From Promethearchaeota archaeon (GTDB lineage Archaea; Asgardarchaeota; Lokiarchaeia; Sigyniarchaeales; SOKP01): 32,000 bases of DNA. The stretch's first letter is position 1. Each line of letters starts with the position of its first letter. A program made the position numbers and the translations under genes. The stretch covers positions 90,001-122,000 of the forward strand of contig JAUWGH010000008.1 of NCBI GenBank assembly GCA_030606485.1, in the 5' to 3' direction. Positions 28,709 through 31,325 of this stretch are shown in pieces. Below the pieces are notes generated by a model. The model searched no databases, was not told the DNA's origin, and worked only from the letters and a program-made list of their open reading frames with translations.

Positions 28709-29572
28709 TTGATGGTTAATAGCAAATTAATGACATTGAAAGAAGCAATATCAATATATGTTCATGATGGCGATTTAATCGGGATTGGTGGTCTTTCTTT
28801 TTGGAGGAAACCAGCAAGTGCTTGTAGAGAAATAATTAGGCAAGAGAAAAAAGATCTTTCAATTTGCACTTTTGTTGGAGGGATTGAAGTTGATATGCTT
28901 ATAGGTGCCGAATGTGTTTCAGAAGTTAGAGCCTCATTTGTAGGAATGGAAGTTTTTGGAATGGCACCTCATTATAGAAAGGCTGTTGAGACGGGAAAAG
29001 TTAATATATCCGAAGAAAGTGAAGCCTCACTCGCCCTAGGGCTTAAATGCTCTTATTTAAAGGTACCCTTTATGCCCTTAAAAGGGATAATTGGAACGGA
29101 TTTTCCTAAAGTAAGAAAAGACATAAAACAATTTGAAGACCCTTTAGGTTCAGGCACCCAATTAATGGCATTACCTAAAATCGATCTAGATGTCGCTATT
29201 TTACATGTGCCATATGCTGATGAATTTGGAAATGGAAATATTGCTGGAGCTGTTTGGCTTGATGATGATATGGCAAAAACTGCTAAAAAAACAATCATAA
29301 TATGTGAAAATTTGGTCGAAACCGAAGATATTCGATATCTTCCCGGAAAAGCTCAATTACCCATGCAAACAACAGACGCTGTTGTGAAAATTCCATTTGG
29401 TGCTCATCCCACTTCGTGCTACAATCGCTACACATTCGATGCTCTACATATTCAAGAATATCTCAAAATGGAATTTGATGAATATAAACGCAAATTTATT
29501 GATGTTAAATCTCACGCGCAATACTTAGAAAATGCAGGGGGGGCACAGATGATTTTAAATATATTATTATAA
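28709..29572 (+). CDS. Family I CoA-transferase-like protein, subunit A (GctA/IpdA-like)
   Basis: 287 aa. MTLKEAI..YVHDGD.IGIGG...RKP, VPFMP, HVPYADEFGN, VVKIPFGAHPTSC. Confidence 0.85.
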   Translation: MMVNSKLMTLKEAISIYVHDGDLIGIGGLSFWRKPASACREIIRQEKKDLSICTFVGGIEVDMLIGAECVSEVRASFVGMEVFGMAPHYRKAVETGKVNISEESEASLALGLKCSYLKVPFMPLKGIIGTDFPKVRKDIKQFEDPLGSGTQLMALPKIDLDVAILHVPYADEFGNGNIAGAVWLDDDMAKTAKKTIIICENLVETEDIRYLPGKAQLPMQTTDAVVKIPFGAHPTSCYNRYTFDALHIQEYLKMEFDEYKRKFIDVKSHAQYLENAGGAQMILNILL

Positions 29573-29604
29573 TAAAATAAAAATAGAATAAATGGTGTAT
29601 ATGA

Positions 29605-30402
29605 TTGAATAAAACTGGTAAAAACAATAACACTTTAGAATTGATTAAGAACAGAAGGACTATTCGAACATATGATCCTAAACCACTTACTCAAGAAGAA
29701 ATTAATATGATTATATATGGAGCAATGAGAGCTCCTACAGCAGGTAACATGATGTTCTATTCCATTATTCAAGTAACTGATCAAAAAATGAAAGATAAAT
29801 TGGCAATAACATGTGATAATCAGCCCCATATCGCAAAAGCTCCCTTGGTTTTGATTTTTCTAGCTGATATGCAACGATGGTGGGATTATTTCAAAATCTG
29901 TAAAACACGAGAATTATGCGATGAAATTGGCGTAGAATTTCAAACACCACAGGAATCTGATCTACTACTTGCCTGTTGTGATGCATTAATAGCAGCTCAA
30001 AATGCTGTTATAACAGCGGAGGCTTTAGGAATCGGTTCATGTTATATTGGAGATATTGTTGAAAATATTGAAATTCATCGTAAAATGTTTAATCTTACTC
30101 GATGGGTATTTCCTATAATAATGGTCTGTTTTGGGTACCCAAAAGGCAATAAGGAAAAGATTCCTTTAACACCCAGATTTTCTCAAAAATTTATCCATTT
30201 TACCAACAAGTACAATAGATTAAATGAGCAAGATTTTACTGAAATGTTTCAAAATGTGAAGAGAAGTTATGATGTAAAACAAGCTAAGAATTTAGGCCAA
30301 AAATTTTATTTTGCAAAGTTAGCGGCGGATTATTCTATGGAAATGCGACGATCAGTTAAAGTAGCCATTAAAGATTGGAGTATGAAAAATAATAATATAT
30401 AA
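29605..30402 (+). CDS. Nitroreductase/NADPH-flavin oxidoreductase family (NfrA/Frp-like)
   Basis: 265 aa. RRTIRTY, APTAGNM..YSII, NQPHIAKAP..LIFLAD, DALIAAQN...AEALGIGSCYIG. Confidence 0.88.
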   Translation: MNKTGKNNNTLELIKNRRTIRTYDPKPLTQEEINMIIYGAMRAPTAGNMMFYSIIQVTDQKMKDKLAITCDNQPHIAKAPLVLIFLADMQRWWDYFKICKTRELCDEIGVEFQTPQESDLLLACCDALIAAQNAVITAEALGIGSCYIGDIVENIEIHRKMFNLTRWVFPIIMVCFGYPKGNKEKIPLTPRFSQKFIHFTNKYNRLNEQDFTEMFQNVKRSYDVKQAKNLGQKFYFAKLAADYSMEMRRSVKVAIKDWSMKNNNI

Positions 30403-30443
30403 ATTAAATTTCTGAAAATATTTAATAAAAGAGGGATAAAAGA

Positions 30444-31325
30444 ATGAGTGAATATTCAAAAGATTATACGATTGGTGAGATGATAACTGTTTTAATGGCA
30501 AGGGAAGTTAGAAATGATGATGTTATGATTGTTGGAGTTGCTACACCTTGTGTATGGGCAGCATTTACACTGGCAAAATTAACACATGCTCCAGATGCTA
30601 TTTATCATTATATCATGGGAAATACTTTTGTTTTTGAACCTCGTCAAGTTTCATTACTTTATTTAGAGATGAATACAGCAAGAGCATATAGATTTCAAAA
30701 TACAGGTGAATGTACTCTGGAAAGCTTACCTTCTGATAAACTTACTACAATAGAGTTCTTTAGACCTGCTCAAATTGACCAATATGGAAATACAAACAAT
30801 GTTTGCATTGGTGATTGGAATAGACCAAAGATTAGACTTCCTGGATGCGCAGGCATAGCTGACTTTAGCATGTTTTATTCTCGTGGCTCTTTCCTCTACA
30901 CACCAAGACATGATACGCGAACTTTCGTTCCAATAGAGAAACTTTACTTTATCTCGGGAGTTGGTTTCCCTAACGGAAAGCCAAGCATTTGTGGTGGTGC
31001 TGGACCCCAATGTGTAATAACTAATTTAGCGTATTTAAATTTTGATGGAAAGGTTAAGCGGATGAAAATCGCATCAATTCATCCTGGCATAGACATTGAG
31101 ACCATAAAAAATTCTACTGGTTTTGATTTAATCATTCCTGATAATTTGAAAGAAACGAAACCGCCTACTGTAAAAGAAATAAAACTTTTGAGAGAAAAAG
31201 TAGATCCATTAGGCATAAGGAAGTTAGAAATTTTCTCAGGTAAGGAACGAGAAGAATTGTTAGATGTGATTATAGAAAAAGAATTAGCAATGAAAAAAAG
31301 GTTTCCAAAATTACTTAATAATTAA
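30444..31325 (+). CDS. Family I CoA-transferase-like protein, subunit B (GctB/IpdB-like), canonical catalytic Glu apparently absent
   Basis: 293 aa. EM....AREV, AKLTHAPD, AQIDQYGNTN, RP..RLPG, ITNLAYLNFD, SIHPG..IE.I..STGF, DPLG.R. Confidence 0.85.
   Translation: MSEYSKDYTIGEMITVLMAREVRNDDVMIVGVATPCVWAAFTLAKLTHAPDAIYHYIMGNTFVFEPRQVSLLYLEMNTARAYRFQNTGECTLESLPSDKLTTIEFFRPAQIDQYGNTNNVCIGDWNRPKIRLPGCAGIADFSMFYSRGSFLYTPRHDTRTFVPIEKLYFISGVGFPNGKPSICGGAGPQCVITNLAYLNFDGKVKRMKIASIHPGIDIETIKNSTGFDLIIPDNLKETKPPTVKEIKLLREKVDPLGIRKLEIFSGKEREELLDVIIEKELAMKKRFPKLLNN

Follow-up and report, generated by a model that had tools for sequence, protein, structure and literature searches.

Family I coenzyme A (CoA) transferases work by a glutamyl-CoA relay (summarised in PMC9813914) that depends on a glutamate of the beta subunit, Glu54 in the glutaconate CoA-transferase GctAB of Acidaminococcus fermentans (1POI). 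Two characterised enzymes of the Gct family are without this residue, and in both the fold serves enolate chemistry. IpdAB of Rhodococcus jostii and Mycobacterium tuberculosis (6CO6, 6CO9, 6COJ, 6CON) hydrolytically opens the ring of the steroid-derived COCHEA-CoA and shows no transferase activity (PMC5380842). The second, AibAB of Myxococcus xanthus (5MZW-5N03), is a 3-methylglutaconyl-CoA decarboxylase in which Cys56 at the corresponding site is dispensable and a nearby glutamate of subunit B, Glu72, may supply the proton (PMC7756340). Here we describe a gene pair from a Promethearchaeota archaeon of the Lokiarchaeia (assembly GCA_030606485.1), located in a stretch of 32,000 nucleotides, hereafter the window, at positions 90,001 to 122,000 of contig JAUWGH010000008.1. 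The proteins, subunits A (alpha) and B (beta), are annotated in databases as 'glutaconate CoA-transferase', and a first-pass annotation of the window had read them as a possible IpdAB-type C-C cleaving hydrolase. The pair belongs to a distinct and well-conserved clade of Gct-family heterodimers, also present in Chloroflexota and other anaerobes, and is almost certainly not a transferase of the Glu54 type.

Subunit B lacks the catalytic glutamate

Subunit B reads HAPDAIYHY-I57-MG around the expected active site. The position seven residues past the conserved proline of the HAP/YAP motif is Ile57 here, Glu54 in GctB (1POI_B), Cys56 in AibB (5MZW) and Gly57 in IpdB, the last equivalence having been drawn previously (PMC5380842), and profile alignments of subunit B to GctB and AibB run without gaps across the strand that follows the motif. 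Ile57 is kept in all 120 close lokiarchaeial homologs, which carry the names Candidatus Lokiarchaeota or Promethearchaeota, so it does not reflect a sequencing error; a pseudogene was likewise rejected, as orthologs of at least 70% identity occur in 46 of the 61 genomes of this family. In distant members of the subfamily the site is alanine, threonine or histidine. The missing GctB glutamate reported in the first-pass annotation is thus borne out, and with this residue missing no glutamyl-CoA relay can be set up at the usual site.

The partner subunit carries the motif SEES-E105-AS. This column holds glutamine in GctA (Gln103), as the first-pass annotation had correctly placed it, glutamate in IpdA (alanine in 6COJ, the complex of the E105A mutant with substrate) and glycine in AibA. 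Alpha-Glu105 is found in every close homolog of subunit A and in 48 of 48 distant subfamily sequences. Over the 53 A/B pairs sampled, alpha-Glu105 and beta-Glu54 were mutually exclusive (36 pairs with the alpha glutamate only, 9 with the beta glutamate only, 8 with neither), although the nine beta-glutamate pairs form a single clade. Glutamate occupies the 54 site in only ~13 of the top distant representatives, which suggests that a large part of Gct-family diversity consists of proteins lacking Glu54. Alpha-Glu105 is shared by many unrelated lineages without Glu54 and so marks a protein as 'not a Glu54 transferase' rather than as an IpdAB.

The first-pass annotation had allowed that the nearby beta-Glu65 could substitute for the lost residue. 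This is unlikely: beta-Glu65 is kept in 118 of 120 close homologs, but among 91 distant subfamily members the position is glutamate in 27% and aspartate in 51%. In the AlphaFold2 (AF2) model it comes after the return strand at residues 61-63, and it is not among the residues named at the interface of the predicted dimer, although this last point is not proof. Better candidates are the subfamily-conserved beta-Glu75 and beta-Glu104. The former is kept in 90 of the 91 distant members and aligns within one residue of AibB Glu72/Asp73, Glu72 being the proposed proton source named above. The invariance of Glu104 and Arg107 in loci L060-L139 is partly circular, as the motif itself served as the search pattern. 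The subfamily retains alpha-Glu81, alpha-Glu102/103/105, beta-Glu75 and the C-terminal Arg259, Glu262 and Arg269, whereas the residue at the 54 site may be Ile, His, Ala or Thr.

Fold, predicted heterodimer and comparison with solved enzymes

Subunit A matched 1POI_A (E 7.5e-42), 6CO6_A (2.3e-26) and 5MZW_A (1.9e-16) in the PDB, and subunit B matched 1POI_B (E 2.1e-27). The AF2 models had confidence (pLDDT) values of 94.8 for A and 94.5 for B. Structure comparison (VIA) gave Z scores for A of 37.0 to both 1POI_A and 6CO6_A and 33.4 to 5MZW, and for B of 28.1 to 1POI_B and 6CON_B and 27.6 to 5MZW_B; B aligned only to about residue 265, and its C-terminal helical extension goes beyond the solved Gct, IpdB and AibB chains. 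By both sequence and model, the close matches of the two chains were confined to three solved enzymes, GctAB, IpdAB and AibAB, with other transferases at Z of at most 26 (A) and 17 (B). The predicted A+B complex scored 0.91 against 0.00 for the best control, with contacts agreeing at 94% or more between runs and partner pLDDT of at least 88. The mark applied to this score is reached by 58 of 80 solved pairs and 2 of 110 mismatched pairs, and the score may reflect memory of, or likeness to, the solved GctAB and IpdAB complexes. In the predicted dimer alpha-Glu105 contacts beta-Gly137, and beta residues 58-61, 71-73 and 75-76 line the A/B interface. The pair therefore has the alpha and beta PF01144 chains and the fold of the Gct family, with the heterodimer itself predicted.

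GctAB gives the highest sequence match (34% for A, 29% for B) and shares the subunit layout. The pair differs from it, and from Glu54-bearing relatives of the CatIJ/PcaIJ type, in having Ile57 for beta-Glu54 and Glu105 for alpha-Gln103; all sampled Glu54 proteins fall in one clade that does not include it, and no gcdA-type (PF01039) gene was found in this genome. With IpdAB the pair shares the fold, a beta-54 site without glutamate, glutamate at alpha-105, an acid at alpha-81 and an R-[KR]-P loop. Structural identity to IpdAB is 21-26%, however, sequence identity to bona fide IpdA and IpdB is 34% and 27%, and beta-Glu104/Arg107 and the C-terminal extension are features of this family. IpdB Arg92 and Arg126, which are conserved in the IpdB homologs sampled and reportedly anchor the substrate, are Thr102 and Ala136 here by alignment. 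No ipdC, ipdF or echA20 was found near the locus, nor any linkage to steroid C/D-ring genes, and a genome-wide search with bona fide ipd cluster genes (IpdC, EchA20-like, short-chain dehydrogenase/reductase (SDR) and acyl-CoA dehydrogenase (ACAD)) returned family-level matches of 25-30% at best and no orthologs.

AibAB resembles the pair in fold, in its non-acidic beta-54 site and in an acid near beta-72/75, but AibA has glycine at alpha-105 and the AibAB-like Asgard proteins lie in another clade. Such proteins occur in other Asgard families at L044:6339-8047, L045:6163-7868 and L051:5467-7166, with 5MZW as best PDB match and glycine at alpha-105; by sequence these are candidate archaeal decarboxylases of the methylglutaconyl-CoA type. 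CitF (2HJ0) and MdcA (6MPR, 5VIT) share the fold distantly (Z 10-19) at far lower similarity, and are single long chains acting on acyl-carrier proteins. They transfer without the family I glutamate and are not known to form a covalent glutamyl intermediate. Both belong to the family II transferases (PMC9813914). Neither a cognate acyl-carrier protein nor lyase or decarboxylase subunits were seen at the locus.

Phylogenetic position and distribution

In a tree of concatenated A and B sequences from 53 pairs, in which AibAB was represented only by Asgard proxies, this group, IpdAB, the AibAB-like proteins and the Glu54-bearing transferases formed separate clades, each with an ultrafast bootstrap (UFB) of 100. 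Proteins from Bacillota, Asgard archaea, Anaerolineae and Syntrophaceae share the clade of the pair (UFB 100), and IpdAB forms a long-stem clade apart from it. Phylogeny, a check suggested in the first-pass annotation, places the pair in a clade of its own outside IpdAB, and approximately unbiased (AU) tests (2000 replicates, fast trees) do not single out a sister group: sisterhood to IpdAB is not rejected (p 0.44), and sisterhood to AibAB or Gct is rejected no more strongly. The subfamily extends over this lokiarchaeial family, a second Asgard family (f19), Helarchaeota, a Bathyarchaeota relative, many Anaerolineae, Syntrophaceae, Aneurinibacillus and Simplicispira. Relatives in the ESM Atlas, mainly from Chloroflexota, are named only 'putative CoA-transferase'.

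Several related loci were recorded. In f19, a sister Glu54-less pair with an RPGQ motif and alpha-Glu105 (L042:877-5939, L043:872-6054) belongs to a run of same-strand genes that also encodes an SDR, an OB-fold protein and the large subunit of a true methylmalonyl-CoA mutase. In some Anaerolineae (L064:3912-5611, L108:8983-10702, L111:7364-9181) a single A gene is followed by two B-subunit genes in tandem. The 'CoA-transferases' of the alkene/coenzyme M clusters of Xanthobacter Py2 and Nocardioides JS614, together with several pairs from plasmid collections (L188:2899-4721, L189:2992-4766, L186, L190, L192), are without a Glu54 equivalent and have cysteine or glutamate at alpha-105. At L046:335-4745 a Glu54-bearing GctAB pair lies directly upstream of an archaeal thiolase/3-hydroxy-3-methylglutaryl-CoA synthase/DUF35 operon.

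Genomic context

The features of the locus are listed in Table 1. A nitroreductase gene lies between A and B, all three co-oriented, with gaps of 32 nt (A to nitroreductase) and 41 nt (nitroreductase to B). Of 20 family loci, 8 have the nitroreductase in this position and 10 have A and B as immediate neighbours; an obligatory third subunit was rejected, as the nitroreductase is missing between A and B in 12 of the 20.

Table 1. Genes and residues of the pair, in window coordinates.
Feature	Position	Strand	Remarks
Subunit A (alpha), Gct-family CoA-transferase fold	28709..29572	+	287 aa, TTG start, PF01144
Alpha-Glu81 codon	28949..28951	+	At A/B interface in predicted dimer; Asp in IpdA-clade proteins
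Alpha-Glu105 codon	29021..29023	+	Equivalent to IpdA Glu105, GctA Gln103, AibA Gly; proposed general acid/base
NfsA/FRP-like nitroreductase, accessory	29605..30402	+	265 aa, PF00881, NF008033
Subunit B (beta)	30444..31325	+	293 aa, PF01144, conserved C-terminal helical extension
Beta-Ile57 codon (ATC)	30612..30614	+	Position of GctB catalytic Glu54
Beta-Glu65 codon	30636..30638	+	Candidate substitute, judged unlikely
Beta-Glu75 codon	30666..30668	+	Subfamily-invariant acid; at A/B interface in predicted dimer
Beta E104-F-F-R107	30753..30764	+	Clade signature; not in GctB, IpdB or AibB

Bacterial relatives are found beside genes for ACAD and electron transfer flavoprotein (ETF), thiolase, crotonase, 3-hydroxyacyl-CoA dehydrogenase and ligases. 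Clusters in Anaerolineae add an aminotransferase, threonine dehydratase and a Liv-type transporter, often with A and B split by other genes. Among the clusters of the bacterial relatives, three already have an activating enzyme, be it a ligase, a family III transferase or a second GctAB pair that does carry Glu54. Recurring lokiarchaeial neighbours are CobO (14 of 20 loci), a membrane pair (13 of 20) and a block of MeaB and a B12 mutase (8 of 20). Elsewhere in the genome, a MenB/BadI-like crotonase just under both family cut-offs (C1:476866-477660, L164) adjoins a 3-hydroxyacyl-CoA dehydrogenase gene and lies near an ACAD gene.

Two relatives adjoin genes of the hydantoinase/acetone-carboxylase family. 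In known cases enzymes of the acetone-carboxylase family carboxylate ketones to beta-keto acids. A three-subunit cluster of this kind (hydantoinase A, hydantoinase B and a gamma subunit, PF08882) is located at C10:865091-869880. A link between it and the pair was rejected; the gamma subunit occurs in 38 of 61 family genomes, and genus g3 has the pair but not this subunit.

About 4 kb past the 3' end of the window, at C12:126126-127796 on the minus strand (L144:8127-9797), lies the gene for a divergent adenosylcobalamin-dependent acyl-CoA mutase large subunit. Its specificity residues are RLFSGH, TMTVGYVPY and GYN in place of RQY, ARNTY and GYH, and its nearest match is 2-hydroxyisobutyryl-CoA mutase (4R3U). 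Of 201 Asgard genomes, only those of families f1 and f19 yielded it, at ~70% identity between the two, and these are also the families with close orthologs of the A/B pair. In 23 family genomes the mutase and A genes lie on one contig, at most 36 kb apart. This proximity in f1 is weak evidence of association, because the whole region is syntenic, as the counts for CobO and the membrane pair show. A universal link between pair and mutase was rejected, since the two are not physically linked in f19 and no mutase ortholog turned up in 50 further carrier genomes, most of which are bacterial (best match 47% identity). Biotin carboxyltransferase (PF01039), not found in this genome, was found in only 2 of 61 family genomes despite mutases of the methylmalonyl-CoA (MCM) and isobutyryl-CoA (ICM) types; most large Asgard families have it. 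We treat the mutase and PF01039 patterns as leads only: they involve two lineages, the region is syntenic, the 50 further carrier genomes yielded no mutase ortholog, and other families have mutases but neither gene.

Possible activities of the pair

That the heterodimer is no transferase of any kind is probable. The reading we tentatively prefer, though at less than even confidence, is a Glu105-dependent cleavage of a C-C bond in a non-steroid acyl-CoA, IpdAB-like without being an IpdAB. It is favoured because the pair has the glutamate of IpdA and not the glycine of AibA, and because its relatives lie in beta-oxidation clusters that have other activating enzymes. The predicted heterodimer, the spread of close orthologs through the family and the two relatives beside acetone-carboxylase-family genes also count in its favour. 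The heterodimer would bind an acyl-CoA without being able to take it through the classical glutamyl-CoA ping-pong; alpha-Glu105, possibly with beta-Glu75, would serve as general acid/base for both the thioester enolate and water, as in IpdAB, and a retro-Claisen or retro-aldol reaction would cut the C-C bond of a 3-oxo, 3-hydroxy or cyclic acyl-CoA. Such a substrate may come from a branched or cyclic non-steroid acid that is degraded anaerobically by a route of the beta-oxidation type. Several observations weigh against this. The lokiarchaeial locus lacks a beta-oxidation operon, the genome already has its MenB/BadI-like crotonase, one clade member (L053) has asparagine at alpha-105 while keeping beta-Glu75 and beta-Glu104, the two IpdB arginines are replaced, AibAB lost the same glutamate and is a decarboxylase, and our literature searches found no characterised member of the clade. 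In addition, A and B are the only PF01144 matches in the 3.75 Mb genome, which would suit a general transferase. A true IpdAB ortholog opening the steroid C-ring intermediate is very improbable. The shared alpha-Glu105 and acidic alpha-81 and the AU result would allow it, but the AU tests disfavour the other sister groups no more strongly, and the separate long-stem clade, the low identities, the family-level ipd matches and the lost arginines speak against it. The first-pass annotation was therefore too specific in proposing an IpdAB-type, ring-cleaving enzyme.

Of its broader claim, a hydrolase instead of a transferase, the missing Glu54 nucleophile and the match of the alpha glutamate to IpdA Glu105 are right; AibAB and CitF/MdcA show that loss of this glutamate need not mean hydrolysis. 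A transferase with a relocated nucleophile (alpha-Glu105, beta-Glu75 or beta-Glu104), or one using acyl-anhydride exchange in a ternary complex like CitF and MdcA, could act on short branched acids that amino-acid fermentation produces, releasing or activating them. The family II precedent, the invariant extra glutamates, the lone PF01144 pair and the Anaerolineae clusters with aminotransferase, threonine dehydratase, ACAD/ETF and Liv-type transporter fit such a role, yet all characterised Glu54-less Gct-family enzymes found are non-transferases, this genome also encodes a family III transferase and ~19 ligase-like proteins, and several relatives' clusters hold another activating enzyme, and we consider it unlikely. 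A biotin-independent decarboxylase like AibAB, acting for example on glutaconyl-, methylglutaconyl- or alkylmalonyl-CoA and using Glu105 or Glu75 to protonate the enolate, would take the place of the missing carboxyltransferase. It has the AibAB precedent, the HGD-D and MCM genes of this genome and the near absence of PF01039 from f1 (1 of 40) and f19 (0 of 6) in its favour, but is unlikely: AibA and its Asgard relatives have the alpha-105 glycine and form another clade, and eight other families are without both genes, giving a family-level chance of ~0.13. Families f8, f9, f15 and f21 have MCM/ICM-type mutases with neither PF01039 nor the pair, which likewise weakens a methylmalonyl-CoA decarboxylase filling the pathway hole. 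An acyl-CoA thioesterase, in which alpha-Glu105 would activate water against the thioester and recycle CoA, is improbable. Small changes at the catalytic glutamate do make family I enzymes hydrolases (PDB 9CQ2, 'CtfAB E46D active site mutant hydrolase') and the relatives sit in fermentative acyl-CoA clusters; such an activity would, however, be energetically wasteful for sediment anaerobes and leaves the very high conservation of the charged pocket unexplained. Quite unlikely as a whole, but the most far-reaching proposal, is that in this clade the CoA-transferase fold has been put to a new catalytic use for a third time, following IpdAB and AibAB. In Asgard archaea the enzyme would then work with the divergent B12 mutase in a hitherto undescribed anaerobic pathway, and would cleave or decarboxylate a branched acyl-CoA independently of biotin, in lineages that yielded no biotin carboxyltransferase.

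Implications

The first-pass annotation was right about the residues and, beyond its narrow appeal to IpdAB, did not mention the nitroreductase between A and B, AibAB, or CitF/MdcA. Repurposing of a transferase fold is already a known concept, and the surprise is limited until the substrate is found. Only two Glu54-less Gct enzymes have known chemistry, and in metabolic reconstructions of Lokiarchaeia and Anaerolineae these proteins are probably credited with a reaction that is impossible by the known mechanism. Near-universal and highly conserved in its Lokiarchaeia family, the pair offers biochemistry an easy way to find out which compounds these uncultured sediment archaea degrade.

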